From NCBI RefSeq assembly GCF_003018255.1, contig NZ_CP027440.1: a stretch of 64,000 nucleotides of DNA; one strand, given 5' to 3'. Source of the stretch: Escherichia coli (GTDB taxonomy: Bacteria; Pseudomonadota; Gammaproteobacteria; Enterobacterales; Enterobacteriaceae). How positions within the stretch are numbered: position 1 is the first letter of the stretch; the number at the start of each line of letters is the position of its first letter. The position numbers and the translations under genes were made by a program. The notes under the pieces are model-generated. The model worked only from the letters and a program-made list of their open reading frames with translations. It had not been told where the DNA came from and did no database searches. Positions 3,336 through 27,852 of this stretch are shown piece by piece.

Positions 3336-4670
<1,335 letters not shown>

Positions 4671-7248: not shown

Positions 7249-7769
7249 ATTCCTCTCCCCTCATAGGCGACGAATAGCATTTTGTGTTGAGGATCACAAA
7301 ACGAATAATTGCTGGTCGCCGCGATAAGGTCAGACGAAGACAACAAGGGGGATTCTCACTGTGCTTTACATCAGCGTAGGCCATAGAATGTTGCTTCGTT
7401 GACTGTAATGCCGGGTAAATGAGCATTTTTTGATAGTGCGAAAGAACCCTGCGAGGAAAATAAGCATCTATTATTGTTTGTCATGATGACAAGGCAGGCA
7501 TCAATGAAAGGCTTCCCAATTGCACATATTTTTCACCCTTCAATCCCGCCAATGCACGCAGTGGTTAACAATCACAACAGAAATATTGATTATTGGACGG
7601 TAAAAATTTAGGTTATAACGCCCAAATGATTCAACGATCGGACAATACCTGCGAACTTACAATTAATGAGAGAAATATATGTATAATTACGACCTTTTAA
7701 ATGCAATATAGACTTAATAACTTCTTACAAAGTCTATTATTAATACCGTAGATATTCATCTTACCCTGG

Positions 7770-7805
7770 GCACCAAAAGCAAAAACCCGCCGAAGCGGGT
7801 TTTTA
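7770..7805 (-). terminator. rho-independent terminator downstream of rnpB
   Basis: Plus strand aaaaacccgccgaagcgggttttt: GC stem with TTCG-type loop, T-run on the minus strand directly 3' of the rnpB end. Confidence 0.8.
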
Positions 7806-7813
7806 CGTAAATC

Positions 7814-8190
<377 letters not shown>

Positions 8191-8197
8191 GGCGCGC

Positions 8198-8226
8198 AGT
8201 ATAGAGGGTTTGCGCGCCCTTGTCAC
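8198..8226 (-). promoter_or_regulatory. rnpB sigma70 promoter
   Basis: Minus strand reads GTGACA - 17 nt - TATACT - 7 nt - G(+1); the -35 hexamer (8221..8226) overlaps the garK stop codon (8223..8225). Confidence 0.75.
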
Positions 8227-9368
8227 CCCGCGTTGCGCATTCCAATCGCCAGTGTCGCGGCGATATTACGTGAAGCACGGCAGATATTGTCATAAGCTCC
8301 GCGGAATGCTTCGTCTAACGTACCAATGCTGGTCAATACGCTGAAGACCGCATCAATGCCATGCTGATGTACAACGCCAACATCATTGGTCAGGCTACCC
8401 GCAATGCCAATCACCGGTTTATGGTACTTTTTCGCCACGTTTGCGACGCCAATCGGAACCTTGCCGTGAATACTCTGGCTGTCAATACGCCCTTCACCGG
8501 TGATCACCAGCGTACAATCGTGAATATGTTCCTCCAGATTCAGCGCCGTAGTGACGATTTCAATACCACTTTTCAGTTCTGCACCAAGAAACGCCATCAG
8601 CGCCGCGCCCATACCACCCGCAGCTCCTGCGCCGGGGACATCTTTCACATCAACATGCAGCGCTTTTTTAATGACATCGGCATAGTGAGAGAGGTTATTG
8701 TCCAGCTCGACAATCATCGCTTCACTGGCTCCCTTTTGTGGGCCAAAGATGCGCGATGCGCCGTTATCGCCCACCAGCGGATTGGTGACATCACAAGCGA
8801 CGCGAATGACGCAATCTTTTAAGCGCGGATCGAGGCCGGAAATATCAATATCATTCAGAGTATTAAGACTACCGCCGCCAAAACCAATTTCATTGCCGTT
8901 GGCGTCGCATAATTTCGCCCCCAGCGCCTGTACCATGCCTGCGCCGCCATCATTTGTAGCGCTGCCGCCAATGCCGATAATAATGTTTGTTGCACCGCTC
9001 TCCAGCGCCTGCAGGATTAACTCGCCTGTGCCGCGTGAAGTGGTCACGAGTGGATCGCGTTTTTCCGCAGGTACCAGCTCCAGCCCACTGGCCGCCGCCA
9101 TTTCAATAAATGCGGTTTTGCCATCGCCGGAGATCCCCCAACTGGCATCCACTTTCTCGCCCAGCGGCCCTGTAACCCAGGCGTGACGTTCAGAACCCTG
9201 GGTAGCTGCAATCATCGCTTCCACCGTTCCTTCGCCACCATCGGCAACCGGAACAGAAACGTACTGTGCATCAGGAAAAATTTCCCGAAATCCTTTTTCT
9301 ATCGCCTGCGCAACCTCGCTGGCAGATAAACTTTCTTTATAAGAGTCTGGGGCGATTACGATTTTCAT
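8223..9368 (-). CDS. garK: glycerate 2-kinase
   Basis: ORF track 8223..9449; N-terminus MKIVIAPDSYKESLSASEVAQAIE (glycerate kinase family); start trimmed to the ATG at 9368. Confidence 0.9.
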   Translation of the reverse strand: MKIVIAPDSYKESLSASEVAQAIEKGFREIFPDAQYVSVPVADGGEGTVEAMIAATQGSERHAWVTGPLGEKVDASWGISGDGKTAFIEMAAASGLELVPAEKRDPLVTTSRGTGELILQALESGATNIIIGIGGSATNDGGAGMVQALGAKLCDANGNEIGFGGGSLNTLNDIDISGLDPRLKDCVIRVACDVTNPLVGDNGASRIFGPQKGASEAMIVELDNNLSHYADVIKKALHVDVKDVPGAGAAGGMGAALMAFLGAELKSGIEIVTTALNLEEHIHDCTLVITGEGRIDSQSIHGKVPIGVANVAKKYHKPVIGIAGSLTNDVGVVHQHGIDAVFSVLTSIGTLDEAFRGAYDNICRASRNIAATLAIGMRNAG

Positions 9369-9464
9369 ACCTATGCCTGTTACCACATGACGCCGGAGGG
9401 CGTTTCTCTTATTCGGCCTGGATTCCAGGCCCGGATTGCAATACGCCATCCGGGCACGACGTCA

Positions 9465-10349
9465 TTAACGAGTAACTTCGACTTTCGCCAGTTTTTCGTA
9501 GTAGCACGCCAGGGCGCTATGATCTGCCGTTCCTAAACCATCTGCTCGCAGTGCCTGCATCATCTCCATAACCGCAGCTGTGAGCGGCAGTTGCGCACCG
9601 ACGCCGTGGGAAGTATCCAGCGCATTTGCCAGATCCTTAATATGCAGATCAATACGGAAGCCCGGCTTGAAGTTGCGGTCCATCACCATCGGCGCTTTGG
9701 CATCCAGCACGGTACTGCCCGCCAGTCCACCGCGAATTGCCTGATACACCAAATCCGGGTTAACGCCCGCTTTGGTTGCCAGCGTTAACGCTTCTGACAT
9801 CGCGGCAATATTCAGCGCCACAATGACCTGATTCGCCAGTTTGGTAACGTTACCTGCACCAATTTCCCCGGTATGCACCACGGAACCCGCCATCGCTTTC
9901 ATCAAATCATAGTATTTGTCGAAAATAGCCTTGTCGCCGCCCACCATCACTGACAGCGTACCGTCGATGGCTTTCGGTTCACCGCCGCTCACCGGAGCAT
10001 CCAGCATATCAATGCCTTTCGCTTTCAGAGCTTCGCTGATTTCACGGCTTGCCAGCGGTGCAATAGAACTCATATCGATCAATACCGTACCTGGCTTCGC
10101 GCCTTCAATAATGCCATTCTCACCCAGCGCCACCTCTTTCACATGAGGGGAGTTTGGCAGCATGGTTATGATGACGTCACACTGTTCAGCGATCGCTTTA
10201 GCCGTAGAAGCTGTTTCTGCACCTGCAGCAATCACTTCAGCAATAGCTTCTGGGTTACGGTCAGCAACCACCAGCGAGTAACCTGCTTTCAGAAGGTTTT
10301 TACTCATTGGTTTACCCATAATCCCCAGGCCAATAAAACCAACTTTCAT
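9465..10349 (-). CDS. garR: tartronate semialdehyde reductase (2-hydroxy-3-oxopropionate reductase)
   Basis: N-terminus MKVGFIGLGIMGKPMSKNL with a Rossmann GxGxxG motif; gar operon position. Confidence 0.9.
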   Translation of the reverse strand: MKVGFIGLGIMGKPMSKNLLKAGYSLVVADRNPEAIAEVIAAGAETASTAKAIAEQCDVIITMLPNSPHVKEVALGENGIIEGAKPGTVLIDMSSIAPLASREISEALKAKGIDMLDAPVSGGEPKAIDGTLSVMVGGDKAIFDKYYDLMKAMAGSVVHTGEIGAGNVTKLANQVIVALNIAAMSEALTLATKAGVNPDLVYQAIRGGLAGSTVLDAKAPMVMDRNFKPGFRIDLHIKDLANALDTSHGVGAQLPLTAAVMEMMQALRADGLGTADHSALACYYEKLAKVEVTR

Positions 10350-10384
10350 AGTCATATCAATCATCTCTCTTGTTGCGGTGGTGG

Positions 10385-11155
10385 TTATTTTTTAAAGGTA
10401 TCAGCCAGTTTCTGAGTGGCAGAGCGGAAGACGCCGAGATCGCTGCCGACAGCCACAAACGTCGCGCCCCATTCCAGATAACGACGCGCATCGGCTTCGA
10501 CCGGCGCGAGGATACCGCTGGGTTTGCCGTGCGCGCTGGCACGGTTAAAAATGTGCTGAATTGCTTTTTGTACATCCGGGTGTGAGGCATTGCCGAGATG
10601 GCCTAATGCCGCAGCCAGATCGCTGGGGCCGACGAAGATACCGTCTACACCTTCGGTAGCGGCAATGGCATCGACGTTATCTACGCCCTGCTGACTTTCT
10701 ATCTGGACCAGAATAGTGATGTTCTTGTTCGACTGAGCGAAATAATCCGCCACGGTGCCAAACATATTGGCGCGGTGAGAAACGGAGACGCCGCGAATGC
10801 CTTCCGGCGGGTAACGAGTTGATGCCACCGCCTGCTCTGCTTCCTCTTTTGTTTCTACAAAAGGAATCAGGAAGTTATAGAAACCGATATCCAGAAGACG
10901 CTTAATAATTACCGGCTCGTTGGTCGGCACTCGCACTACTGGCGCGCTGGCGCTGCCTTTCAGGGCCATTAACTGCGGAATAAACGTGGAGATATCGTTT
11001 GGCGCATGTTCGCCATCCAGCACCAGCCAGTCAAACCCAGCCAAACCAAGAACTTCAGTGCTAATCGGGTTAGAGAGTGCTGACCAGCAACCAATTTGTA
11101 CCTGTTTCGCAGCCAGTGCGGCTTTGAATTTATTCGGGAAAACATCGTTATTCAT
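10385..11155 (-). CDS. garL: 5-keto-4-deoxy-D-glucarate aldolase
   Basis: 256-aa HpcH/HpaI-family aldolase ORF between garR and garP. Confidence 0.9.
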
Positions 11156-11170
11156 CGCTTATACCTTTGC

Positions 11171-12505
11171 TTATTTCTGCAATTCCATACGTTTAATGTC
11201 GCCAACTACGAAGAGGTAGCAGACCATCGCCATCAGCGCTGAACATCCCACGAAAACCAGTGCTGCATTGAAGGAGTGCAATTCACTTACCAGGTAGCCA
11301 ATCACCAGTGGAGTGACAATGGAGGCAACATTGCCAAAGACGTTAAAGACGCCGCCGCAGAGACCAACAATCTCTTTCGGCGCGGTGTCAGAAATCACTG
11401 GCCAGCCCAGCGCACCAAATCCTTTGCCAAAGAAAGCCAGCGCCATCAGCATGACCACCAGCGTGGTGTTGTTGGTGTAGTTACATAAGATGATGGTGGA
11501 AGCCAGCAACATTCCCAGCACAATCGGTAGCTTACGTGCCAGGGTCAGGGACAAACCGCGTTTGATCAGATAATCCGAGAAGACACCTCCCAGCACGCCG
11601 CCCGCAAAGCCACACAGTGCCGGAATCGAGGCGACCAGACCCACTTTCAGAATCGACATGCCTTTTTCCTGCACCAGATAAATTGGGAACCAAGTGAGGA
11701 AGAACCAGGTAATGGTGTTGATAAAATATTGTCCGAAAAATACGCCCAGCATCATGCGGTTAGAGAGCAATTGCTTGATGTAATGCAGTTTGGGACCACT
11801 TGCTGCCACACTGCCCGGCTTTTTGTGGTCCATATCGACCACCGCGCCATTTTCTGAGATAAACTTCAGCTCTTCCGCAGACATACGTGGGTGATCTGTC
11901 GGGTTATGAATCAACTTGATCCACAGCGCCGTCAGCACAAAACCAATTACCCCCATAACGGTAAAGACGTGCTCCCAGCCCCAGGCGAAAGTCAGCCAGC
12001 CAAGCAGCGGCGAAAAGAGCGCCAACGAGAAATATTGCGCCGAGTTAAAGATGGCGGAGGCAGTACCACGTTCTTTCGTCGGGAACCAGGCGGCGACAAT
12101 ACGGGCGTTCGCCGGGAATGATGGCGCTTCCGAGAACCCCAGCATAAAGCGCATAAAGAACATGGAGATCCCAGCCCAGGCCAGCGGAAACATATCGACA
12201 AAGCCTTGCAGGAAGGTGAACAGCGACCAGAAAAAGAGGCTGTAAGTGTAAACTTTCTTCGAGCCAAACTTATCAAGCAGCCAGCCGCCGGGAATTTGCA
12301 TCAGCAAGTAGGCCCAGCCAAAAGCAGAGAAGATGTAACCCATCGAAACCGCACTTAACTGCAACTCTTTTGCCACTTCGGTACCAGCAATAGACAGCGT
12401 TGCACGATCGGCGTAGTTAACGGCGGTAACAATAAAAATAATCAGTAATATTAAATAGCGGGTATGCACGCCTTTCTTTTTTTCGTCAACGGTGTCCAGC
12501 ATCAT
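11171..12505 (-). CDS. garP: galactarate/glucarate MFS transporter
   Basis: 444-aa 12-TM-like ORF with MFS character; first gene of garPLRK. Confidence 0.9.
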   Translation of the reverse strand: MMLDTVDEKKKGVHTRYLILLIIFIVTAVNYADRATLSIAGTEVAKELQLSAVSMGYIFSAFGWAYLLMQIPGGWLLDKFGSKKVYTYSLFFWSLFTFLQGFVDMFPLAWAGISMFFMRFMLGFSEAPSFPANARIVAAWFPTKERGTASAIFNSAQYFSLALFSPLLGWLTFAWGWEHVFTVMGVIGFVLTALWIKLIHNPTDHPRMSAEELKFISENGAVVDMDHKKPGSVAASGPKLHYIKQLLSNRMMLGVFFGQYFINTITWFFLTWFPIYLVQEKGMSILKVGLVASIPALCGFAGGVLGGVFSDYLIKRGLSLTLARKLPIVLGMLLASTIILCNYTNNTTLVVMLMALAFFGKGFGALGWPVISDTAPKEIVGLCGGVFNVFGNVASIVTPLVIGYLVSELHSFNAALVFVGCSALMAMVCYLFVVGDIKRMELQK

Positions 12506-12879
12506 TTTATTTACCTCGGGTACTTATGCTGATTTTTATTATTATGGGGAAGGTGTTATTTATGAGTTTCATTTATGCCGTTACGACAATGAACTCGGGA
12601 ATTAGTATAAGCAGCGCGAGAATAATAATCATTGTGCAAATGCTAATTTAATTAATACTATTTAAATATTATTTTGAGCATATGCACATAAGGTTGCGCG
12701 CTAAAGCACAGATTTGCGCTTTACCTTGCCGGGAGGTACTGCAATCCCTGAAATGATTGACATTGATCACATTTCTGCATTTAAACTCCTGACATTCTTA
12801 TTTCACCCAATGAAGTTATTTATTTTTAAATGAGACCAGGTCCTCATTTTAATAGTCCCTGGCTGGAGAATATTGCACA
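12506..12879. promoter_or_regulatory. garP/garD divergent promoter region (CdaR-activated in K-12)
   Basis: 374-bp AT-rich spacer between divergent garP and garD; sites not individually resolved. Confidence 0.5.
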
Positions 12880-14451
12880 ATGGCCAACATCAAAATCAGA
12901 CAAGAAACGCCAACTGCGTTTTATATAAAAGTTCACGACACAGATAATGTGGCAATTATTGTTAATGATAATGGCCTGAAAGCAGGAACGCGTTTTCCGG
13001 ATGGGCTGGAATTAATTGAACATATTCCCCAGGGGCATAAAGTCGCATTGCTGGACATTCCGGCTAATGGTGAAATTATTCGTTATGGCGAGGTGATTGG
13101 TTACGCCGTGCGCGCAATCCCACGCGGAAGCTGGATCGACGAATCAATGGTTGTACTACCGGAAGCGCCGCCGTTACATACGCTGCCACTGGCAACCAAA
13201 GTCCCGGAACCCTTACCGCCGCTGGAAGGATACACCTTTGAGGGCTATCGCAATGCCGATGGCAGCGTGGGCACCAAAAACCTGCTCGGCATCACCACCA
13301 GCGTCCACTGTGTGGCAGGCGTGGTGGACTACGTAGTAAAAATCATTGAACGCGATCTGCTACCGAAATACCCGAACGTCGATGGCGTGGTGGGGCTGAA
13401 TCATTTGTACGGTTGTGGCGTGGCGATTAACGCACCCGCGGCAGTTGTACCTATTCGTACCATTCACAATATTTCGCTGAACCCTAACTTTGGCGGCGAA
13501 GTAATGGTGATTGGTCTGGGTTGTGAAAAGTTGCAGCCTGAACGCCTACTGACTGGAACGGATGATGTGCAAGCTATTCCAGTAGAAAGCGCCAGCATTG
13601 TCAGTTTGCAGGATGAAAAGCATGTCGGTTTTCAGTCCATGGTCGAGGATATTTTGCAGGTCGCCGAATGCCATCTACAAAAACTGAATCAACGTCAGCG
13701 AGAAACCTGTCCGGCTTCAGAACTGGTTGTCGGCATGCAGTGCGGTGGCAGCGATGCGTTTTCTGGCGTAACGGCAAACCCGGCGGTTGGGTATGCGTCT
13801 GATCTATTGGTGCGCTGCGGCGCAACGGTGATGTTTTCAGAAGTCACAGAAGTGCGTGACGCGATACATCTGCTGACACCACGCGCAGTGAACGAAGAGG
13901 TCGGCAAACGGCTGCTGGAGGAGATGGAGTGGTACGATAATTATCTCAATATGGGAAAAACCGATCGCAGCGCCAACCCTTCGCCGGGGAACAAGAAAGG
14001 CGGTCTGGCAAATGTGGTGGAGAAGGCACTCGGCTCCATTGCTAAATCGGGTAAAAGTGCAATTGTTGAAGTGCTGTCGCCCGGCCAACGCCCGACTAAA
14101 CGCGGATTAATTTACGCCGCGACGCCAGCCAGCGATTTTGTCTGTGGCACGCAACAGGTGGCTTCGGGTATCACCGTGCAAGTGTTTACGACCGGTCGTG
14201 GTACGCCGTACGGCCTGATGGCGGTACCCGTCATTAAAATGGCGACCCGCACCGAGCTGGCGAACCGCTGGTTTGATTTAATGGATATTAACGCGGGCAC
14301 TATCGCTACCGGCGAAGAAACCATTGAAGAAGTGGGCTGGAAGTTGTTTCACTTTATTCTCGACGTCGCCAGCGGGAAGAAGAAAACTTTCTCGGATCAA
14401 TGGGGACTGCATAACCAGCTGGCGGTGTTTAACCCGGCACCGGTGACCTGA
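12880..14451 (+). CDS. garD: galactarate dehydratase
   Basis: 523-aa [30 protein letters not shown]; altronate-dehydratase-like family. Confidence 0.92.
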
Positions 14452-14473
14452 TTTCTTTTGGAACGTCCCTCGC

Positions 14474-14505
14474 AAAACATGGCCTTAGTGCCATGTTTTT
14501 ATTGT
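14474..14505 (+). terminator. rho-independent terminator after garD
   Basis: aacatggc-cttagt-gccatgtt hairpin followed by TTTTTATTGTTT. Confidence 0.7.
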
Positions 14506-14599
14506 TTAAAGTCCACACATCCATTAATAATGCATTTGCATTACCTTAGTTCAAGCTTATAATTTGAGCAGAAAACAGGCTGTAAAAGGACAGTAAATA

Positions 14600-14935
14600 A
14601 TGCCCGCTAATGCTCGCTCTAACGCTGTACTGACCACTGAATCAAAGGTCACTATACGCGGACAAACAACTATCCCCGCGCCAGTGCGTGAGGCCTTAAA
14701 ACTGAAGCCTGGCCTGGACAGCATTCATTACGAAATTCTGCCTGGTGGGCAAGTATTTATGTGCCGACTGGGAGATGAACAGGAGGATCATACTATGAAT
14801 GCATTTTTGCGTTTTCTGGATGCAGATATCCAGAACAACCCGCAAAAAACTCGTCCATTCGACATTCAACAAGGAAAGAAACTTGTCGCTGGCATGGACG
14901 TCAACATTGACGATGAGATTGGCGACGACGAATAA
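14600..14935 (+). CDS. prlF: type II antitoxin (AbrB/SpoVT-type swapped-hairpin DNA binding)
   Basis: 111-aa ORF with an acidic C-terminus (DDEIGDDE); stop overlaps the yhaV start (TAATG). Confidence 0.88.
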   Translation: MPANARSNAVLTTESKVTIRGQTTIPAPVREALKLKPGLDSIHYEILPGGQVFMCRLGDEQEDHTMNAFLRFLDADIQNNPQKTRPFDIQQGKKLVAGMDVNIDDEIGDDE

Positions 14936-15399
14936 TGGATTTTCCACAAAGGGTTAATGGTTGGGCGCTATATGCTCATCCCTGTTTTCAGGAAACCTAC
15001 GATGCTTTAGTTGCCGAAGTCGAGGCATTAAAGGGAAAAGATCCTGAAAATTATCAGAGAAAAGCTGCCACAAAGTTATTGGCGGTGGTCCATAAAGTGA
15101 TTGAGGAGCATATCACGGTCAATCCATCATCACCGGCATTCCGTCATGGCAAGTCGTTAGGCTCTGGGAAAAATAAAGACTGGTCACTGGTAAAATTTGG
15201 CGCTGGTCGCTATCGTCTCTTCTTTCGTTACAGTGAAAAAGAGAAAGTCATCATTCTGGGATGGATGAACGATGAAAACACGCTGCGCACCTACGGTAAA
15301 AAAACAGATGCCTATACCGTATTCAGTAAAATGTTAAAAAGAGGACATCCTCCTGCCGACTGGGAAAGCCTCACCCAAGAGACAGAAGAAAACCATTGA
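14935..15399 (+). CDS. yhaV: type II toxin, RelE/ParE-superfamily ribonuclease
   Basis: 154-aa ORF translationally coupled to prlF; K-12 synteny between garD and agaR. Confidence 0.88.
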   Translation: MDFPQRVNGWALYAHPCFQETYDALVAEVEALKGKDPENYQRKAATKLLAVVHKVIEEHITVNPSSPAFRHGKSLGSGKNKDWSLVKFGAGRYRLFFRYSEKEKVIILGWMNDENTLRTYGKKTDAYTVFSKMLKRGHPPADWESLTQETEENH

Positions 15400-15453
15400 T
15401 GGTGTTCACAATGCCCGCCGAACGCATTGGTGTTGACCAGCGGGCATCCTTTC

Positions 15454-16263
15454 TCATTCCCCGACCAGAATCACTTCAACCCCAGCCTTTCTCAGTCCTT
15501 CCAGACTATCCGCAGGAATGCCTTCATCAACAATGATCATGTCGATACGTTGAGTATCAATGATCTTATGTAAACTAGAACGATTGAACTTACTGGAATC
15601 GGTGACCACGATGATCCGTTCCGCAACTTCGCACATCCGACGGTTTAAACGGGCTTCATCTTCATTATGCGTGCTGACGCCACGCTCCAGATCAATAGCA
15701 TCTACACCAAGAAACAGCATATCGAAGTGGTAATTTTGCAGCGATTGCTCAGCCTGATCGCCATAAAAAGATTGTGACTGACGGCGCAAATGCCCGCCGG
15801 TCATCAGCAGCTCAACACCTTCCGCTTCCAGCAACGCATTAGCCACGTTCATACCGTTGGTCATCGCAATTACGTCGGTGTGCTTGCGCATCAGACGAGC
15901 AATCTCAAAAGTGGTAGTCCCGGAATCGAGGATTACCCGATGACCTGGCTGAATCAACTCAACGGCAGCTTTCGCAACGCTGCGTTTCATTGCGGTGTTC
16001 AGCGCGCTTTTATCTTCCACTGATGGCTCGACTGACGGCGTCGTGCTATCGCAGATCAACGCGCCGCCATAGGCACGCACAGCGATCCCCTGCTTTTCCA
16101 GAAACGCCAGATCGTTGCGGATCGTCACAGTAGATACACCATACAACGCCGATAGATCATTAACTTGCACACTTCCTTGCTGGCGCAGGCGTTGAATGAT
16201 CTGCTCTCGTCGCTCACTGGTGCCTGTCACTCGCTTCTCGCCTGAAGCGTCGGTATTACTCAT
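15454..16263 (-). CDS. agaR: DeoR-family repressor of the aga regulon
   Basis: 269-aa ORF with an N-terminal HTH ([35 protein letters not shown]) and a DeoR C-terminal sugar-phosphate domain. Confidence 0.92.
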
Positions 16264-16511
16264 AGTAAGTCCTTTCGTAAAACTTTCGTTTCATTTCGTT
16301 TTGCCTATTAACGCCTTTCTATTAAGCAAATGCAAGCCCACCTTACCCATTGGCGCAAGCTACTCTCGTTTCAGTGGCTTTCATTATGTTTCTTTTGTGA
16401 ATCAGATCAGAAAACTATTATCTTTCGTTTTATTTTTATCTCACCATGACGCAGTATCAACTGAAACAAAACGAAAGATTAATATCGCAGTAATCTGAAC
16501 TGGAGAGGAAA
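16264..16511. promoter_or_regulatory. agaR/kbaZ divergent promoters with AgaR operator repeats
   Basis: Repeated CTTTCGTTT / AAACGAAAG motifs at about 16271..16310, 16422..16436 and 16465..16478. Confidence 0.7.
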
Positions 16512-17792
16512 GTGAAACATCTGACAGAAATGGTGAGACAGCACAAAGCGGGCAAAACAAATGGGATTTATGCCGTTTGTTCCGCACATCCGCTGGTGCT
16601 GGAAGCTGCAATCCGCTACGCCAGTGCAAACCAAACGCCGTTACTGATTGAAGCAACCTCCAATCAGGTGGACCAGTTCGGCGGTTATACCGGAATGACA
16701 CCCGCCGATTTTCGCGGCTTTGTTTGTCAGCTAGCCGACTCGTTGAATTTCCCGCAGGATGCGCTGATTCTGGGTGGCGACCATCTGGGGCCAAACCGCT
16801 GGCAAAACCTGCCTGCCGCTCAGGCAATGGCCAATGCCGATGATTTGATTAAAAGCTACGTGGCGGCAGGATTCAAAAAAATTCACCTTGATTGCAGCAT
16901 GTCCTGTCAGGACGATCCGATTCCCTTAACTGATGATATCGTGGCTGAACGCGCCGCCCGTCTGGCGAAAGTGGCGGAAGAAACCTGCCGTGAACATTTT
17001 GGCGAGGCCGATCTGGTGTATGTCATTGGCACCGAAGTTCCGGTGCCTGGCGGCGCGCATGAAACCTTAAGCGAGCTGGCGGTCACCACACCGGATGCCG
17101 CCCGCGCCACACTGGAAGCCCATCGCCACGCCTTTGAAAAGCAGGGCCTGAATGCCATCTGGCCACGCATTATTGCCCTGGTGGTTCAACCCGGCGTCGA
17201 ATTCGATCACACCAACGTTATTGATTATCAGCCCGCCAAAGCGACCGCCTTAAGCCAGATGGTCGAAAACTACGAAACGCTGATTTTCGAAGCGCACTCT
17301 ACCGATTACCAAACACCGCAATCGCTGCGCCAGCTGGTGATTGACCACTTTGCCATTCTGAAAGTTGGCCCGGCGCTGACCTTTGCCCTGCGTGAAGCTC
17401 TGTTCTCTCTGGCGGCGATTGAAGAAGAACTGGTACCAGCAAAAGCCTGTTCTGGTCTGCGTCAGGTGCTGGAAAACGTGATGCTCGACCGCCCGGAATA
17501 CTGGCAAAGCCACTACCACGGTGACGGCAACGCGCGTCGTCTGGCGCGTGGTTACAGCTACTCGGACCGCGTGCGCTATTACTGGCCAGACAGCCAGATT
17601 GATGACGCTTTCGCTCATCTGGTTCGTAATCTGGCGGATTCACCAATTCCGCTGCCGCTGATCAGCCAGTATCTGCCGCTGCAGTACGTGAAAGTTCGCT
17701 CCGGCGAGCTGCAGCCAACGCTACGGGAACTCATTATCAACCATATTCAGGACATCCTGGCGCAGTACCACACAGCCTGTGAAGGCCAATAA
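16512..17792 (+). CDS. kbaZ: tagatose-bisphosphate aldolase non-catalytic subunit
   Basis: 426-aa [26 protein letters not shown]; GTG start at 16512 preceded by GGAGAGG. Confidence 0.92.
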
Positions 17793-17814
17793 GCAAAACA
17801 AAGAGGAACACGCT

Positions 17815-18288
17815 ATGCCAAATATTGTTTTAAGCCGGATTGATGAACGCTTGATTCACGGTCAGGTTGGCGTTCAGTGGGTCGGATTTGCGGGGGCAAA
17901 TCTGGTGCTGGTAGCCAACGATGAGGTTGCCGAAGATCCGGTACAACAAAACCTGATGGAAATGGTACTGGCAGAAGGGATCGCCGTACGTTTCTGGACG
18001 CTGCAAAAAGTTATCGACAACATTCATCGCGCCGCCGATCGACAGAAAATCCTGCTGGTTTGTAAAACACCTGCCGATTTCCTGACGCTGGTGAAAGGTG
18101 GCGTTCCGGTGAATCGCATTAACGTTGGCAATATGCACTACGCCAATGGCAAGCAACAAATCGCCAAAACGGTTTCTGTAGATGCGGGCGATATCGCAGC
18201 ATTTAACGACCTGAAAGCCGCTGGAGTGGAATGCTTCGTTCAGGGCGTCCCGACAGAGCCTGCTGTGGACCTCTTTAAATTACTTTGA
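17815..18288 (+). CDS. agaV: PTS N-acetylgalactosamine-specific EIIB
   Basis: N-terminus MPNIVLSRIDERLIHGQVG (mannose-family IIB); ATG at 17815. Confidence 0.9.
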   Translation: MPNIVLSRIDERLIHGQVGVQWVGFAGANLVLVANDEVAEDPVQQNLMEMVLAEGIAVRFWTLQKVIDNIHRAADRQKILLVCKTPADFLTLVKGGVPVNRINVGNMHYANGKQQIAKTVSVDAGDIAAFNDLKAAGVECFVQGVPTEPAVDLFKLL

Positions 18289-18298
18289 GGGATTCATC

Positions 18299-19078
18299 AT
18301 GGAAATCAGTCTGTTGCAGGCATTCGCGTTGGGCATTATCGCCTTTATCGCTGGCCTGGATATGTTTAACGGCCTAACCCATATGCACCGCCCGGTGGTC
18401 CTCGGCCCGTTGGTCGGGCTGGTACTTGGCGATCTGCATACCGGTATTTTAACCGGCGGTACGCTGGAACTGGTGTGGATGGGGCTGGCCCCGCTGGCGG
18501 GCGCACAGCCGCCTAACGTGATTATCGGTACTATCGTCGGCACGGCGTTTGCCATTACTACTGGCGTGAAACCCGATGTTGCAGTCGGTGTCGCCGTACC
18601 TTTCGCTGTCGCAGTACAGATGGGGATTACCTTCCTGTTCTCGGTGATGTCTGGCGTAATGTCCCGCTGTGACCGGATGGCAGAGAACGCCGATACACGC
18701 GGCATTGAACGCGTGAACTATCTGGCACTGCTGGCACTCGGCACTTTCTATTTTCTCTGCGCTTTCCTGCCTATCTACTTCGGCGCGGAACATGCAAAAA
18801 CCATCATTGATGTCCTACCGCAACGATTAATCGACGGCCTCGGCGTCGCGGGCGGCATCATGCCAGCAATCGGTTTTGCCGTGCTGCTGAAAATCATGAT
18901 GAAAAACGTCTACATCCCCTACTTCATCCTGGGCTTTGTTGCCGCAGCCTGGCTCAAGTTACCGGTGCTGGCTATTGCTGCCGCCGCGCTGGCGATGGCG
19001 CTGATCGACCTGCTGCGTAAATCTCCTGAACCGACTCAACCTGCGGCACAGAAAGAGGAATTTGAAGATGGCATCTAA
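18299..19078 (+). CDS. agaW: PTS N-acetylgalactosamine-specific EIIC (full length)
   Basis: 259-aa membrane ORF, uninterrupted; mannose-family IIC; overlaps agaE by 17 nt. Confidence 0.85.
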   Translation: MEISLLQAFALGIIAFIAGLDMFNGLTHMHRPVVLGPLVGLVLGDLHTGILTGGTLELVWMGLAPLAGAQPPNVIIGTIVGTAFAITTGVKPDVAVGVAVPFAVAVQMGITFLFSVMSGVMSRCDRMAENADTRGIERVNYLALLALGTFYFLCAFLPIYFGAEHAKTIIDVLPQRLIDGLGVAGGIMPAIGFAVLLKIMMKNVYIPYFILGFVAAAWLKLPVLAIAAAALAMALIDLLRKSPEPTQPAAQKEEFEDGI

Positions 19079-19946
19079 TCAAACCACCCTGCCGAACGTC
19101 AGTGAAAACGAAGAAACACTGCTGACAGGCGTCAATGAAAACGTGTATGAAGATCAGAGCATTGGCGCAGAGCTGACGAAAAAAGATATCAACCGCGTCG
19201 CCTGGCGTTCCATGCTGTTACAAGCGTCTTTTAACTACGAACGTATGCAGGCTTCTGGCTGGTTGTACGGTCTGCTGCCTGCTCTGAAAAAGATCCACAC
19301 TAATAAACGCGACCTGGCGCGCGCCATGAAGGGGCATATGGGTTTCTTCAATACCCATCCGTTTCTGGTGACGTTTGTTATCGGCATTATCCTTGCGATG
19401 GAGCGTTCTAAGCAGGACGTTAACAGTATTCAGAGCACCAAAATTGCCGTCGGTGCGCCGCTCGGCGGGATTGGCGATGCGATGTTCTGGCTAACGCTAC
19501 TGCCGATTTGTGGCGGGATAGGCGCAAGCCTCGCGCTACAAGGCTCTATTCTTGGCGCAGTCGTCTTTATTGTGCTGTTCAACGTGGTACACCTGGGGCT
19601 GCGTTTTGGTCTGGCGCATTATGCTTACCGCATGGGCGTGGCGGCGATTCCACTCATTAAAGCGAATACCAAAAAAGTCGGCCATGCTGCGTCAATCGTT
19701 GGGATGACGGTAATCGGCGCGCTGGTGGCAACCTATGTTCGTTTAAGCACCACGCTGGAAATCACCGCTGGCGACGCAGTGGTTAAGTTACAGGCTGATG
19801 TTATCGACAAACTGATGCCAGCCTTCTTACCGCTGGTCTACACCCTGACCATGTTCTGGCTGGTACGCCGCGGCTGGAGTCCGCTGCGCCTGATTGCAGT
19901 GACCGTGGTTCTCGGCATCGTCGGTAAATTCTGCCATTTCCTTTAA
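19062..19946 (+). CDS. agaE: PTS N-acetylgalactosamine-specific EIID
   Basis: 294-aa membrane ORF following agaW; mannose-family IID. Confidence 0.85.
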   Translation: MKMASNQTTLPNVSENEETLLTGVNENVYEDQSIGAELTKKDINRVAWRSMLLQASFNYERMQASGWLYGLLPALKKIHTNKRDLARAMKGHMGFFNTHPFLVTFVIGIILAMERSKQDVNSIQSTKIAVGAPLGGIGDAMFWLTLLPICGGIGASLALQGSILGAVVFIVLFNVVHLGLRFGLAHYAYRMGVAAIPLIKANTKKVGHAASIVGMTVIGALVATYVRLSTTLEITAGDAVVKLQADVIDKLMPAFLPLVYTLTMFWLVRRGWSPLRLIAVTVVLGIVGKFCHFL

Positions 19947-19963
19947 ATACAATGAGGTATTAG

Positions 19964-20398
19964 ATGTTAAGTATTATTTTGACAGGGCATGGCGGGTTTG
20001 CCAGTGGCATGGAAAAAGCAATGAAGCAAATCCTCGGCGAGCAATCGCAGTTTATTGCCATCGATTTTCCGGAAACCTCAAGCACCGCGCTGCTTACATC
20101 GCAGCTTGAAGAGGCCATCGCCCAACTGGATTGTGAAGACGGCATTGTTTTTCTGACGGATTTGCTGGGCGGCACGCCGTTTCGCGTAGCTTCAACGCTG
20201 GCGATGCAAAAACTGGGCTGTGAAGTGATTACCGGCACCAATTTGCAACTGCTACTGGAGATGGTGCTGGAGCGCGAAGGGTTAAGCGGTGAAGAGTTTC
20301 GTGTGCAGGCGCTGGAGTGTGGACATCGTGGGCTGACCAGTCTGGTGGACGAGTTAGGCCGCTGCCATGAGGAATGTCCGGTCGAGGAAGGAATATGA
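19964..20398 (+). CDS. agaF: PTS EIIA (mannose family), shared by the Aga and Gam systems
   Basis: 144-aa ORF MLSIILTGHGGFASGMEKA; stop overlaps the agaA start (ATGA). Confidence 0.85.
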   Translation: MLSIILTGHGGFASGMEKAMKQILGEQSQFIAIDFPETSSTALLTSQLEEAIAQLDCEDGIVFLTDLLGGTPFRVASTLAMQKLGCEVITGTNLQLLLEMVLEREGLSGEEFRVQALECGHRGLTSLVDELGRCHEECPVEEGI

Positions 20399-21528
20399 CA
20401 CCCGTTTTGCGCGCCAGAAGGCTGCTGACTGAAGAGGGATGGCTCGATGACCATCAGTTGCGTATTGCTGACGGTGTAATCGCAGAAATCGAACCGATTC
20501 CAGTGGGCGTGACTGAACGCGATGCGGAACTGCTCTGCCCCGCTTACATCGACACCCATGTACACGGTGGTGCGGGCGTTGATGTAATGGATGACGCGCT
20601 GGATGTGCTCGACAAGCTGGCAATGCACAAAGCACGCGAAGGTGTCGGCAGTTGGTTACCGACCACCGTAACCGCGCCGCTTAATACCATTCATGCGGCG
20701 CTGGAACGTATTGCTCAACGTTGCCAACGCGGCGGACCTGGTGCACAAATACTGGGGAGTTATCTCGAAGGACCGTACTTCACGCCGCAGAATAAAGGCG
20801 CGCATCCGCCGGAGCTGTTTCGCGAGCTGGAAATTGCCGAGCTGGATCAATTGATTGCCGTTTCTCAGCACACCTTGCGCGTGGTGGCGCTGGCACCGGA
20901 AAAAGAAGGGGCATTGCAGGCCATCCGCCATCTTAAACAGCAAAACGTAAGGGTGATGCTGGGGCATAGCGCGGCGACCTGGCAACAAACCCGCGCCGCG
21001 TTTGATGCTGGTGCCGACGGCCTGGTGCATTGCTATAACGGGATGACAGGTTTACATCACCGCGAACCGGGAATGGTTGGCGCGGGATTAACGGACAAGC
21101 GCGCCTGGCTGGAACTGATAGCCGATGGTCATCATGTGCATCCGGCGGCGATGTCGCTGTGTTGTTGCTGTGCGAAAGAGAGAATCGTGCTGATCACCGA
21201 CGCGATGCAGGCAGCCGGGATGCCGGATGGTCGCTATACGTTATGTGGCGAAGAAGTGCAGATGCACGGTGGCGTTGTCCGTACCGCGTCCGGTGGGCTG
21301 GCGGGCAGTACGCTGTCTGTTGATGCGGCAGTGCGCAACATGGTTGAGTTGGCGGGTGTAACGCCTGCGGAAGCCATCCATATGGCATCGCTGCATCCGG
21401 CGCGTATGCTGGGTGTTGATGATGTTCTGGGATCGCTTAAACCGGGCAAACGCGCCAGCGTCGTTGCGCTGGATAGCGGGCTGCATGTGCAACAAATCTG
21501 GATTCAGGGTCAATTAGCTTCGTTTTGA
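20395..21528 (+). CDS. agaA: N-acetylgalactosamine-6-phosphate deacetylase (full length)
   Basis: ORF track 20374..21528; ATG at 20395 gives about 377 aa (MTPVLRARRLLTEEGW...); NagA-like amidohydrolase. Confidence 0.85.
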   Translation: MTPVLRARRLLTEEGWLDDHQLRIADGVIAEIEPIPVGVTERDAELLCPAYIDTHVHGGAGVDVMDDALDVLDKLAMHKAREGVGSWLPTTVTAPLNTIHAALERIAQRCQRGGPGAQILGSYLEGPYFTPQNKGAHPPELFRELEIAELDQLIAVSQHTLRVVALAPEKEGALQAIRHLKQQNVRVMLGHSAATWQQTRAAFDAGADGLVHCYNGMTGLHHREPGMVGAGLTDKRAWLELIADGHHVHPAAMSLCCCCAKERIVLITDAMQAAGMPDGRYTLCGEEVQMHGGVVRTASGGLAGSTLSVDAAVRNMVELAGVTPAEAIHMASLHPARMLGVDDVLGSLKPGKRASVVALDSGLHVQQIWIQGQLASF

Positions 21529-21539
21529 TGGTTTGCTCC

Positions 21540-21700
21540 TTTATTGGGCCTTCACTTCCCCCGTAAGGCCTTTCTTTTTCTTTCGTTTTGATCTGTGCAG
21601 CGGTGTCGGATGCGACGCTAATGCGCCTTATCCGACCTACGGTTGGTGACCGTAAGGCCGGATAAAGTATTTACGCCGCATCCAGCAATCCCTTTTACTT
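21540..21700. repeat. REP/BIME-type palindromic repeats
   Basis: Imperfect palindromes gcgccttatccgacctacg and ggccggataaag...gccgcatcc typical of E. coli REP units. Confidence 0.75.
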
Positions 21701-21877
21701 CCCTTGTCTTTTCTTTCAACGATCACAGATTTCGTTTTATTTCCTTTTTCTCCATTGAACTTTCAGTTTCTTTTCTATAGATTTTAACCAACGAAAGAAA
21801 TCACCAAGTGAAATGAAACGAAAGGCAAACGAAAGCGACAACGCCGACGTCAAGTTCATCAGACTAAGGATTGAGTT
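21700..21877 (+). promoter_or_regulatory. agaS promoter with AgaR operator repeats
   Basis: Four clusters of TTTCGTTT / AACGAAAG motifs (about 21729..21745, 21758..21775, 21790..21805, 21810..21836). Confidence 0.7.
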
Positions 21878-23032
21878 ATGCCAGAAAATTACACCCCTGC
21901 TGCTGCCGCAACCGATACATGGACTGAAGAAGAGATCCGCCATCAGCCTCGCGCATGGATCCGTTCACTCACCAACATCGACGCGCTACGTTCCGCGCTC
22001 AATAACTTCCTTGAACCGTTACTGCGCAAAGAGAATCTGCAAATCATCCTGACCGGAGCCGGAACCTCGGCATTTATCGGTGACATCATCGCGCCGTGGC
22101 TCGCCAGTCATACCGGTAAAAACTTCAGCGCCGTACCGACCACCGATCTGGTCACTAATCCGATGGACTACCTGAATCCAGCTCATCCGCTGCTGTTGAT
22201 CTCCTTCGGTCGATCCGGCAACAGCCCGGAAAGCGTCGCTGCCGTGGAACTGGCAAATCAATTTGTACCCGAGTGCTATCACCTGCCGATCACCTGCAAC
22301 GAAGCGGGCGCTCTTTACCAAAACGCGATCAACAGCGACAACGCGTTTGCCCTACTGATGCCCGCAGAAACGCACGACCGCGGCTTTGCGATGACCAGCA
22401 GCATTACCACCATGATGGCCAGTTGCCTCGCGGTTTTCGCACCTGAGACGATCAACAGCCAGAGCTTCCGCGACGTGGCGGATCGTTGCCAGGCGATCCT
22501 GACCTCACTGGGCGATTTCAGCGAAGGTGTGTTTGGTTACGCACCGTGGAAACGGATCGTTTATCTCGGCAGCGGTGGCTTACAGGGCGCAGCACGCGAG
22601 TCGGCGCTGAAAGTGCTGGAACTGACAGCGGGTAAACTGGCGGCCTTCTATGATTCCCCGACCGGATTCCGTCATGGCCCGAAATCGCTGGTCGATAACG
22701 AAACGCTGGTGGTGGTATTTGTCTCCAGCCACCCTTACACCCGTCAGTATGATCTTGATCTGCTGGCAGAACTCCGCCGCGATAACCAGGCAATGCGCGT
22801 AATCGCCATCGCCGCGGAAAGCAATGACGTTATTACTGCCGGTCCACATATCATCCTGCCGCCGTCCCGTCACTTTATCGACGTTGAGCAGGCATTTTGC
22901 TTCCTGATGTACGCCCAGACATTTGCACTGATGCAGTCGCTGCACATGGGTAATACACCGGATACCCCATCAGCCAGTGGCACCGTTAACCGCGTGGTGC
23001 AAGGCGTAATCATTCATCCGTGGCAGGCATAA
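21878..23032 (+). CDS. agaS: galactosamine-6-phosphate deaminase/isomerase (SIS domains)
   Basis: 384-aa ORF MPENYTPAAAATDTWTEEEIRHQPRAW. Confidence 0.92.
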   Translation: MPENYTPAAAATDTWTEEEIRHQPRAWIRSLTNIDALRSALNNFLEPLLRKENLQIILTGAGTSAFIGDIIAPWLASHTGKNFSAVPTTDLVTNPMDYLNPAHPLLLISFGRSGNSPESVAAVELANQFVPECYHLPITCNEAGALYQNAINSDNAFALLMPAETHDRGFAMTSSITTMMASCLAVFAPETINSQSFRDVADRCQAILTSLGDFSEGVFGYAPWKRIVYLGSGGLQGAARESALKVLELTAGKLAAFYDSPTGFRHGPKSLVDNETLVVVFVSSHPYTRQYDLDLLAELRRDNQAMRVIAIAAESNDVITAGPHIILPPSRHFIDVEQAFCFLMYAQTFALMQSLHMGNTPDTPSASGTVNRVVQGVIIHPWQA

Positions 23033-23905
<873 letters not shown>

Positions 23906-24071
23906 TCATTAGTTTTTTATGATTTATCCCAATGTACTTCCCGATTAATATCGGGGAGTGCCTTAATGGTAAAGGAGATAACTAAACCTTAATAAATACA
24001 TCAGTACAATATCGCAACAATAATATATTTAAAAAGATTATATTATTCAACTTTATGGTGAGGATCACACA

Positions 24072-24548
24072 ATGAGCAGTCCAAATATTCTCTTAACCCG
24101 TATTGATAACCGTCTGGTTCACGGTCAGGTTGGCGTGACCTGGACATCCACCATCGGTGCGAATCTGTTGGTAGTCGTGGATGATGTTGTCGCTAACGAT
24201 GATATTCAACAGAAATTAATGGGTATTACCGCAGAAACCTACGGCTTTGGCATTCGTTTCTTTACTATCGAAAAAACCATTAACGTCATCGGCAAAGCTG
24301 CACCACATCAGAAGATCTTCCTGATTTGCCGTACGCCACAAACGGTACGTAAATTGGTAGAAGGTGGTATTGACCTGAAAGATGTCAACGTCGGCAATAT
24401 GCATTTCTCGGAAGGGAAAAAGCAAATCAGCAGTAAAGTTTATGTCGATGACCAGGATCTCACGGACTTACGTTTTATTAAACAACGTGGCGTGAATGTT
24501 TTCATTCAGGACGTCCCTGGCGATCAAAAAGAACAAATCCCTGACTAA
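24072..24548 (+). CDS. agaB: PTS galactosamine-specific EIIB
   Basis: 158-aa ORF MSSPNILLTRIDNRLVHGQVG. Confidence 0.92.
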   Translation: MSSPNILLTRIDNRLVHGQVGVTWTSTIGANLLVVVDDVVANDDIQQKLMGITAETYGFGIRFFTIEKTINVIGKAAPHQKIFLICRTPQTVRKLVEGGIDLKDVNVGNMHFSEGKKQISSKVYVDDQDLTDLRFIKQRGVNVFIQDVPGDQKEQIPD

Positions 24549-24586
24549 ATCTAAAATCGCCTTAATATTGGTTTGAGGTAATAAAA

Positions 24587-25390
24587 ATGCATGAAATAAC
24601 CCTACTCCAGGGATTATCCCTGGCGGCGTTAGTTTTCTTTCTGGGGATTGATTTTTGGCTGGAAGCCTTATTTTTATTCCGCCCGATAATCGTTTGTACC
24701 CTTACAGGTGCTATTCTCGGTGATATTCAGACTGGCTTAATTACCGGTGGCCTGACAGAGTTGGCTTTCGCCGGATTAACCCCTGCAGGTGGTGTTCAGC
24801 CGCCCAACCCTATTATGGCGGGTCTGATGACCACTGTCATTGCATGGTCTACGGGCGTTGATGCCAAAACGGCAATTGGTCTTGGCCTGCCGTTTAGTTT
24901 GTTAATGCAGTACGTCATTCTGTTCTTCTATTCCGCTTTCTCATTATTTATGACCAAAGCCGATAAATGCGCAAAAGAGGCGGATACGGCAGCGTTTTCC
25001 CGACTTAACTGGACAACGATGCTCATCGTCGCTTCAGCGTATGCGGTGATTGCTTTCCTCTGTACTTACCTGGCACAGGGGGCGATGCAGGCGCTGGTGA
25101 AAGCGATGCCCGCCTGGCTGACCCACGGCTTTGAAGTGGCTGGCGGTATTCTGCCTGCCGTTGGTTTTGGCTTGCTGCTGCGCGTGATGTTCAAAGCGCA
25201 ATATATCCCTTACCTGATCGCCGGTTTCCTGTTTGTTTGCTACATCCAGGTCAGCAACCTGTTGCCGGTTGCCGTGCTGGGCGCAGGCTTTGCGGTGTAT
25301 GAGTTTTTCAATGCGAAATCCCGGCAGCAAGCGCAACCGCAGCCCGTTGCCAGTAAAAATGAAGAAGAGGACTACAGCAATGGGATCTGA
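24587..25390 (+). CDS. agaC: PTS galactosamine-specific EIIC
   Basis: 267-aa membrane ORF; overlaps agaD by 11 nt. Confidence 0.92.
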   Translation: MHEITLLQGLSLAALVFFLGIDFWLEALFLFRPIIVCTLTGAILGDIQTGLITGGLTELAFAGLTPAGGVQPPNPIMAGLMTTVIAWSTGVDAKTAIGLGLPFSLLMQYVILFFYSAFSLFMTKADKCAKEADTAAFSRLNWTTMLIVASAYAVIAFLCTYLAQGAMQALVKAMPAWLTHGFEVAGGILPAVGFGLLLRVMFKAQYIPYLIAGFLFVCYIQVSNLLPVAVLGAGFAVYEFFNAKSRQQAQPQPVASKNEEEDYSNGI

Positions 25391-26171
25391 AATCAGTAAA
25401 AAAGATATCACCCGTCTGGGCTTTCGTTCGTCACTGCTACAAGCAAGCTTTAACTACGAAAGGATGCAGGCGGGCGGTTTTACCTGGGCGATGTTGCCGA
25501 TCCTGAAAAAGATTTATAAGGACGACAAACCGGGCCTAAGCGCGGCGATGAAAGATAACCTCGAATTTATTAATACCCACCCTAATCTGGTCGGATTCCT
25601 GATGGGGTTATTAATTTCGATGGAAGAAAAAGGAGAAAACCGCGACACCATTAAAGGCCTCAAAGTAGCACTGTTTGGCCCAATCGCCGGGATTGGCGAT
25701 GCGATTTTCTGGTTCACTTTGTTGCCGATTATGGCGGGGATTTGCTCATCGTTTGCCAGTCAGGGAAACCTGCTGGGGCCGATTCTATTTTTCGCCGTTT
25801 ACCTGCTTATCTTTTTCCTGCGCGTCGGCTGGACCCACGTCGGTTATTCAGTCGGCGTGAAGGCGATCGATAAAGTGCGAGAGAACTCGCAGATGATTGC
25901 CCGTTCGGCAACCATCCTCGGGATCACAGTAATCGGCGGGCTGATCGCTTCGTATGTGCATATTAACGTGGTGACATCGTTTGCCATCGACAGTACCCAC
26001 AGCGTCGCGCTGCAGCAGGATTTCTTCGATAAAGTCTTCCCGAATATTTTACCGATGGCCTACACCCTGCTGATGTATTACTTCCTGCGGGTAAAAAAAG
26101 CGCATCCGGTGCTGTTAATCGGCGTGACGTTTGTTCTTTCTATTGTTTGTTCTGCATTCGGCATTTTGTAA
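25380..26171 (+). CDS. agaD: PTS galactosamine-specific EIID
   Basis: ORF track 25233..26171; internal ATG at 25380 gives the 263-aa product MGSEISKKDITRLGF. Confidence 0.9.
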   Translation: MGSEISKKDITRLGFRSSLLQASFNYERMQAGGFTWAMLPILKKIYKDDKPGLSAAMKDNLEFINTHPNLVGFLMGLLISMEEKGENRDTIKGLKVALFGPIAGIGDAIFWFTLLPIMAGICSSFASQGNLLGPILFFAVYLLIFFLRVGWTHVGYSVGVKAIDKVRENSQMIARSATILGITVIGGLIASYVHINVVTSFAIDSTHSVALQQDFFDKVFPNILPMAYTLLMYYFLRVKKAHPVLLIGVTFVLSIVCSAFGIL

Positions 26172-26939: not shown

Positions 26940-26948
26940 CTCGCCTGC

Positions 26949-26987: not shown

Positions 26988-26988
26988 A

Positions 26989-27852
26989 TCACTCTCCCTG
27001 CTGCTCCAGCGCATACTTATACAGCGCATTTTTCTTCACGCCGTGAATTTCTGCGGCCAGCGCCGCCGCTTTTTTCAGCGGCAGTTCTGCCTGCAACAGC
27101 GCCAGCGTGCGCAGAGCATCGGCGGGTAAGTCTTCTTCCTGTGCTTTATGGCCTTCGACAATCAGCACCATTTCGCCTTTGCGACGGTTTTCATCTTCTT
27201 TGACCCACGCCAGCAGCTCGCCAACGGGCGCGCCGTGAATGGTTTCCCAGGTTTTGGTCAGCTCACGCGCCAGAACCACGTAGCGGGATTCGCCTAATAC
27301 CGCAACGATATCTTCCAGGCTATCTAACAGACGGTGGGTAGATTCATAAAAAATCAGCGTGCGCGGCTCCGCTTCAATAGCTTTTAGCGCATCACGGCGG
27401 CCTTTTGATTTGGCAGGTAAAAAGCCTTCATAACAAAAACGATCGGATGGTAAACCCGCGGCGCTTAACGCAGTGATAGCAGCACACGGCCCTGGTAGCG
27501 GCACCACGCGAATCCCCGCTTCACGACAGGTACGCACCAGATGGTAGCCAGGATCGTTAATTAGCGGCGTTCCGGCATCGGAAACCAGCGCAATGTTTTG
27601 CCCCTCTTGCAGTTTCGCCAGCAGCGTTTCGGCTTTTTGTTGTTCGTTATGGTCGTGCAGCGCAAACAACCGGGCATTAATCCCAAAATGTTGCAGCAAT
27701 AAACCGGTGTGACGCGTATCCTCGGCGGCAATCAGATCAACGGCCTGTAATACCTCTAATGCACGCTGGGTGATATCAGCCAGATTGCCGATTGGCGTCG
27801 GTACAATGTAAAGCTGGCCCTGAGAATTATCCGCCGATTGGTGTTGTTTCAT
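26989..27852 (-). CDS. rsmI: 16S rRNA (cytidine1402-2'-O)-methyltransferase
   Basis: 287-aa [31 protein letters not shown] (tetrapyrrole-methylase fold); divergent from lpoA. Confidence 0.9.

Follow-up and report, generated by a model that had tools for sequence, protein, structure and literature searches.

Promoters of stable RNAs such as rRNA and tRNA carry a GC-rich discriminator, a feature that renders them sensitive to ppGpp and growth rate. Among the described systems, the one closest to the locus investigated here is the promoter of the essential gene rnpB in Escherichia coli K-12, which is called rnpBp or P-1. As judged from reference lists, this promoter has been studied since the 1980s, with titles up to 2002 being concerned with mutations in its -35 region and with the stringent response. 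The title of Motamedi et al. (1984; PMC345347) refers to 'tandem promoters' upstream of rnpB, and the titles of Jung and Lee (1997) and Park et al. (2002) point to a stringent control of rnpBp. In a CRISPRi screen, garP-garL-garR-garK-rnpB was treated as a single transcriptional unit, in which rnpBp was termed an "intra-operonic promoter" (bioRxiv 10.1101/2020.03.04.975888). This preprint was the sole relevant paper found in a literature search for garK and rnpB together; papers on garPLRK otherwise deal with altered expression or employ a 'garPLRK terminator' as a part.

We have analysed the junction between garK and rnpB in a 64-kb stretch of E. coli DNA, which we refer to as the window. A first-pass annotation of this DNA had placed the rnpB promoter at the very end of garK and had proposed that the overlap couples transcription of the gar operon to that of RNase P RNA, without mentioning that the promoter had already been characterised. 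The observation of a promoter overlapping the garK stop codon is correct, ordinary and already known, since the promoter assignment is right and has been established by experiment in K-12. Between -105 and +40 around the rnpB start, K-12 MG1655 and the window are identical, with the same transcription start site (TSS) and the same 32-nt distance to garK, and thus no difference in the promoter. The segment 8226..8191 on the minus strand is therefore very likely the known, autonomous sigma-70 promoter of rnpB.

The likeness to other described systems is partial. With rrn P1 and tRNA promoters, rnpBp shares the dependence on sigma-70, near-consensus hexamers, a GC-rich discriminator and a stable non-coding RNA product that serves translation capacity. 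It differs from them in the absence of an A+T-rich, UP-element-like sequence upstream of the -35 element, where the region from -59 to -37 is garK coding sequence with about 33% A+T that is not conserved and can be replaced by the end of an insertion sequence, and in a spacer of 17 nt compared to the 16 nt of rrn P1. Like intra-operonic promoters, it overlaps or borders a coding region of the same orientation, from which it is not separated by a terminator, and allows expression of an essential gene independently of the operon. It differs from these in that its product is an RNA whose mature 5' end coincides with the TSS, for which reason read-through transcripts would need cleavage at their 5' end. 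To our knowledge, such 5' cleavage of gar-rnpB read-through transcripts is not known to occur, and rnpB-containing transcripts arriving from upstream are reportedly removed by RNase E. Finally, the same packing is found at the rsmI-rnpB loci of other Gammaproteobacteria, where the upstream frame stops between -20 and -69 relative to the rnpB 5' end, often with the TGA of the -35 element, the upstream gene being rsmI rather than garK.

Anatomy of the rnpB promoter

The features of the region are summarized in Table 1. Both boundaries that define the overlap are well supported. A match to the Rfam family RF00010 (RNaseP_bact_a) with a score of 319.7 bits (gathering score 100, E 2e-104) covers model positions 1-367 of 367 and, together with direct reading of the sequence and the K-12 annotation, places the rnpB 5' end exactly at the G in position 8190, 32 nt (8222..8191) from the garK stop, as had been stated previously. 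From this G, rnpB opens with GAAGCTGACCAG on the minus strand. On the opposite side, the garK open frame, which runs further upstream to an ATG at 9449, matches the NCBIfam equivalog NF007668 with 843.8 bits (cutoff 686) over profile positions 1-381 of 381. As this match reaches the last residue, the stop codon is located where the family expects it, and its position is also in agreement with the K-12 annotation, where rnpB (3270216..3270592) and garK (3270625..3271770) are separated by the same 32-nt gap. The 3' end of garK reads ...ATG CGC AAC GCG GGG TGA and direct reading of the sequence identifies its stop codon as bases 2-4 of the hexamer GTGACA, which confirms the claimed overlap.

Table 1. 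Position of features at the garK-rnpB junction and of rsmI within the window.
Feature	Position	Strand	Basis or remark
rnpB intrinsic terminator, hairpin CCCGC-TTCG-GCGGG (7799..7786) followed by T-run	7775..7806	-	Sequence and terminator scan
rnpB, RNase P RNA (M1 RNA), type A, 377 nt	7814..8190	-	RF00010 match
rnpB transcription start +1 (G), mature RNase P RNA 5' end	8190	-	Rfam model position 1; K-12 TSS
Discriminator GCGCGCC, GC-rich, 7 nt, between -10 and +1	8191..8197	-	Sequence
-10 hexamer TATACT	8198..8203	-	5/6 compared to TATAAT
Promoter spacer AGGGCGCGCAAACCCTC, 17 nt	8204..8220	-	Sequence sliced by script
-35 hexamer GTGACA of the rnpB promoter	8221..8226	-	5/6 compared to TTGACA; read from sequence
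garK stop codon TGA	8223..8225	-	-35..-33 relative to the rnpB start
garK, glycerate 2-kinase, 381 codons	8223..9368	-	Start according to family profile and K-12 annotation
garR, garL, garP, co-oriented, upstream of garK	9465..12505	-	No terminator-like site before rnpB
rsmI, 16S rRNA C1402 2'-O-methyltransferase	26989..27852	-	NF011570, 1-287/287

The two hexamers match the sigma-70 consensus at 10 of 12 positions with a spacing inside the usual range of 17 ± 1 bp, and the earlier reading of a near-consensus promoter was correct to the base. In a promoter scan of the region 7500..13500, this site is the best and the sole one with 10/12 matches. The scan in total yielded 7 sites compared to 7.0 expected from shuffled sequences, so that the rnpB site stands out by its score and position only. 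Sites with at least 10/12 matches are found only 11 times on both strands of the whole window (128 kb of sequence), and for one of them to end by chance 5-9 nt ahead of an RNA 5' end that was defined independently, the probability is about 4e-4. The discriminator has the GC-rich character of stringently controlled stable-RNA promoters, and both its sequence and the titles of published work suggest that the rnpB promoter may be under the control of ppGpp and growth rate.

Upstream of garK, the genes garR, garL and garP are followed by the divergent garD. A scan of the minus strand between position 13500 and the rnpB terminator, placed by the scan at 7806..7779, did not find any terminator-like site, and the first such site downstream of the entire gar operon is the rnpB terminator itself. 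The locus thus shows the layout of an internal promoter, with a co-oriented upstream gene ending in the -35 element and no terminator-like site between the two. In the absence of a terminator before rnpB, transcripts of the gar operon would have to traverse the promoter and rnpB to reach the rnpB terminator.

Start site and autonomy of the promoter

SMRT-Cappable-seq, which captures only 5'-triphosphate ends, has detected a TSS on the reverse strand of K-12 at 3270592 with 54 reads, 40 of which end at 3270215, assigned to the gene b3123 (Yan et al., 2018; PMC6131387, Supplementary Data 1). In these K-12 data, the start falls exactly on the equivalent of 8190, 7 nt after TATACT and within the 5-9 nt expected for a primary start. 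A mapped start far from 8190, which had been named as a refuting outcome, is thus not seen, and the mapping supports the assigned position. Among the rows listed in the tables of this study, a transcript containing rnpB only is present, whereas none was found for gar transcripts or gar-rnpB read-through. With a start at the mature 5' end, RNase P RNA would need no processing on this side.

These results bear on the alternative that the hexamers match by chance and that the end at 8190 is generated by processing of a longer transcript, which starts in or upstream of garK. On the minus strand, garK contains two weak promoter-like sites (9/12), at 8410..8382 and 9004..8977, which might provide the start of such a precursor and might be connected to the 'tandem promoters' in the title of the 1984 paper (PMC345347). 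However, promoter-like sites are no more common there than in shuffled sequences (7 compared to 7.0 expected). Besides the location of the triphosphate end and the low chance of a match at this very spot, the described processing is also at odds with the invariance of the hexamers across genera in the midst of drifting flanks and with the deleterious effect of CRISPRi directed at rnpBp but not at garK. We consider this explanation as extremely unlikely and effectively refuted.

The autonomy of the promoter is evident from the published CRISPRi screen, where guides on rnpBp or rnpB lower fitness, whereas those on garK, garR, garL or garP cause no defect (bioRxiv 10.1101/2020.03.04.975888). The downstream gene is thus expressed despite a block of the upstream genes, and a natural variant is in agreement with this result. 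The garK/rnpB stretch is present in 5425 of 5426 complete E. coli genomes, where it is annotated as garK/rnpB, with 100% identity to one strain, and the 60-mer 8181..8240 occurs unchanged in 5024 of 5413 E. coli genomes. In E. coli VG48B2 (NZ_CP128584.1), the IS4-like element IS421, with a length of about 1.3 kb by its junction coordinates, is inserted between garK and rnpB. Its junctions, at 2650-2690 and 3980-4010 of the locus extract, are located exactly at the overlap of the garK stop and the -35 element, and its target duplication of 10-11 bp, (G)GGTGACAAGG, leaves garK with its TGA and rnpB with a complete -35 element. In this viable strain, the promoter is intact from -37 and everything further upstream is IS sequence. 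VG48B2 is thus a case of natural uncoupling of garK and rnpB, although an outward-facing IS promoter could in principle help, so that the sufficiency of the region -37..+1 is not strictly proved. Together, the CRISPRi data and the IS421 variant show that the rnpB promoter is autonomous and that read-through from gar, if any, is dispensable.

Conservation of the promoter and exchange of the upstream gene

For a comparison across species, rnpB loci of 120 gammaproteobacterial species among the matches listed, a set without Salmonella and Klebsiella, were collected with a conserved rnpB pattern. Upstream genes were assigned from the longest open frame, except for Citrobacter R56, Kosakonia and Enterobacter R1, where they were read from the alignment and tblastn. 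In 20 species of Enterobacteriaceae, the identity to the majority sequence is 62% in the region -70..-37, compared to 100% in the -35 hexamer and 99% in the -10 hexamer, and it is 96% in the discriminator and 99.5% in the region +1..+20. The hexamers are thus more conserved than the flanking sequence and the conservation has its boundary exactly at -36. In the same species, the 3' half of the spacer, AAACCCTC (8211..8204, -21..-14), also shows 100% identity; this invariant stretch corresponds to no recognised sigma-70 element, and the 5' half of the spacer is variable.

Behind this boundary, different genes are found. The gene garK, with its TGA at -35..-33, precedes the promoter in Escherichia, Citrobacter, several Enterobacter, Pseudescherichia, Mangrovibacter and Kosakonia. 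In Lelliottia, Enterobacter MGH24 and Shimwellia, garK is absent and the upstream gene is garR with a stop at -62 or -54, whereas agaR takes this place in Pluralibacter and Enterobacter Ag1 (stop at -62) and rsmI in every sampled member of the Enterobacterales outside the Enterobacteriaceae. By alignment and tblastn, a garK remnant or C-terminus ends at the hexamer TGA in Citrobacter R56 and Kosakonia, and in Enterobacter R1 garR is found about 140 nt upstream. In Citrobacter sp. R56, garK is reduced to its last ~31 codons with the GGGTGACA junction and the promoter being intact. In garK-type species, the C-termini of GarK in front of the hexamer include MRNAG, MRSAG, MLTEG, MQTEG, MHTQG and MCTAR; with the last four residues varying freely, nothing specific to gar is conserved beside the hexamer.

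The only garK-type species sampled without the stop inside the hexamer is Siccibacter. In Siccibacter colletis, garK ends with GGC TGA at -80..-78 and about 45 nt of new sequence are inserted, while rnpB carries a different -35-like hexamer, TTGCAA, with an 18-nt spacer before the conserved TATACT.

The described distribution is informative with respect to the proposed coupling, according to which the overlap would have been selected so that transcription of gar modulates rnpB, either by occlusion of rnpBp upon induction of the operon or by providing additional RNase P RNA from read-through. Its structural part stands: no terminator-like site stops gar transcription before rnpB and the published transcriptional unit extends from garP to rnpB. 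The preservation of the geometry in all sampled garK-type species but one would be a further point in its favour, although this shared feature can equally be inherited from a single ancestor. The functional part finds no such support, as CRISPRi blocks in the four gar genes have no effect on fitness, as the same promoter is found behind garR, agaR or rsmI, as a viable strain contains IS421 between garK and rnpB and as the GarK codons next to the hexamer are not constrained. We thus regard a functional coupling as quite improbable.

A second candidate for a selected feature within this region is an inverted repeat around the -10 hexamer. The sequence GGCGCGCA (8218..8211) is the exact complement of TGCGCGCC (8198..8191), which comprises the last base of the -10 element and the discriminator, and the resulting perfect 8-bp repeat brackets the -10 hexamer. 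Such a repeat might be bound by a regulator or, in read-through RNA, fold into a leader hairpin by which the 5' end of rnpB is marked or insulated. In E. coli, the predicted RNA hairpin has a stability of -15.8 kcal/mol and would end at -1 of read-through RNA, the pairing is kept in E. albertii, where a C>T and a G>A change occur together, and similar hairpins are predicted in many Enterobacterales. Yet, in 28 promoters of Enterobacterales, the pairing of 58.5% barely differs from the 57.6% obtained in column shuffles, with 154 of 500 shuffles reaching or exceeding the observed value, and the score for covariation falls short of the mean of the shuffles. Since the GC-alternating runs on either side of the -10 hexamer are self-complementary by composition alone and since there is no support from covariation in the 28 species, we have rejected the repeat as an effect of composition, and selection for it appears very improbable.

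An older arrangement with rsmI upstream of rnpB

In most of the sampled Gammaproteobacteria, the gene next to rnpB on its upstream side is rsmI. Among the matches listed, a co-oriented rsmI is located directly upstream of rnpB in 76 of 120 gammaproteobacterial loci, and in 59 of these 76 the distance between the rsmI stop and the internal rnpB pattern is below 135 nt, which places the stop within about 75 nt of the rnpB 5' end. Where 5' ends were defined by Rfam, the rsmI stop is found at -34 to -69 in 18 of 20 non-enteric species. The details of the junction vary. In Erwinia persicina, Mixta and three Pantoea species, the stop of rsmI is the TGA of the hexamer GTGACA itself. In Yersinia, Dickeya, Edwardsiella and Acerihabitans, the frame stays open across the hexamer and ends in the spacer, and in Serratia, Budvicia, Rosenbergiella, Pantoea stewartii and Plesiomonas the stop precedes the hexamer by 6-24 nt. 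In several Pseudomonas the rsmI TGA abuts a hexamer TTGTTA or TTGTTC, and it is contained within TTGAGC in Atopomonas and within TTGAGT in strain HTCC2148. What is constant across these loci is the tight, terminator-less packing and no one particular overlap.

In the window, rsmI ends with ...GAG TGA, as in Erwinia, and about 18.8 kb, including agaR, garD and garPLRK, separate its TGA from the rnpB -35 element. Both junctions of this island (the rsmI stop and the rnpB -35 element, with 8227-26988 in between) carry (G)TGA. Smaller islands between rsmI and rnpB are found in Shimwellia (2.1 kb), Enterobacter R1 (5.4 kb) and Enterobacter BIGb0383 (7.2 kb). As far as the sequences tell, rsmI followed by rnpB would be the ancestral arrangement, which is still found in most of the sampled Gammaproteobacteria, and the arrangement in E. 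coli would be derived. A paper linking rsmI and rnpB was not found in the searchable literature.

A proposed fixed promoter edge with exchangeable neighbours

The preferred explanation for the overlap thus starts from the promoter. RNA polymerase would recognise GTGACA and TATACT across the 17-nt spacer and start at G 8190, and transcription would end at the hairpin and T-run of rnpB at 7799..7775. From -36 downstream, the sequence would be constrained by promoter function, whereas the sequence upstream would be free to be replaced. In the older state, rsmI would have ended in or beside the rnpB -35 element, and in the Enterobacteriaceae gene islands (gar, aga and others) would have inserted between rsmI and the promoter. 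The simplest reading of the compared loci is that insertions and deletions have been accepted time and again immediately upstream of -36 and that an incoming open reading frame would run to the first stop that it encounters, which frequently would be the immutable in-frame TGA provided by TGACA. The garK stop would be located inside the -35 hexamer because the gar genes are flush against a promoter with its upstream edge fixed at -36. The overlap is thus best read as tight packing beside a fixed landmark and not as a regulatory device specific to gar.

A broader version of selection would concern the packing itself. The terminator-less placement of a co-oriented gene, of rsmI and, after the arrival of islands, of garK, garR or agaR, against the rnpB -35 element could be selected across Gammaproteobacteria, with rnpB always being also the 3' part of an upstream mRNA. 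In such case, read-through might supply small amounts of RNase P RNA precursors independently of ppGpp while rnpBp is switched off or, alternatively, the rnpB structure and terminator might act as 3' end and stabiliser of the upstream mRNA. We consider this idea as unlikely.

With respect to novelty, what our analysis would add to the known promoter is comparative only and incremental: the ancestry of the rsmI-rnpB arrangement, the sharp boundary at -36 and the recurrent use of the TGA in the hexamer as a stop by genes that are unrelated, none of which was found in the searchable literature. The upstream edge of the rnpB promoter emerges as a sharp boundary of old age, in front of which one gene has been exchanged for another and for which rsmI is the older and still widespread partner. 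A fixed boundary with exchangeable genes would explain how the gene of a sugar-acid kinase can end in the promoter of a tRNA-processing ribozyme without the need for a regulatory link. For annotation, the start and the promoter of rnpB can be placed to the base, with garK having no terminator of its own. For the engineering or deletion of garK, or the addition of terminators after it, the segment 8226..8191 has to be kept to prevent the loss of an essential RNA.

Two further observations concern other parts of the sequence. The only perfect sigma-70 consensus of the window (12/12, TTGACA-18 nt-TATAAT) is located at 52898-52927 on the minus strand. At this locus, the sole difference between K-12 and the strain of the window is found downstream of rnpB, where K-12 (extract 847-1239) contains a tandem array with 3.5 copies of a 113-bp unit, beginning inside the 3' end and terminator of rnpB, compared to a single copy of the unit, with no tandem array found, in the region 7250-7813 of the window; the repeat explains why an 801-nt query gives up to 7 matches in some E. 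coli genomes.
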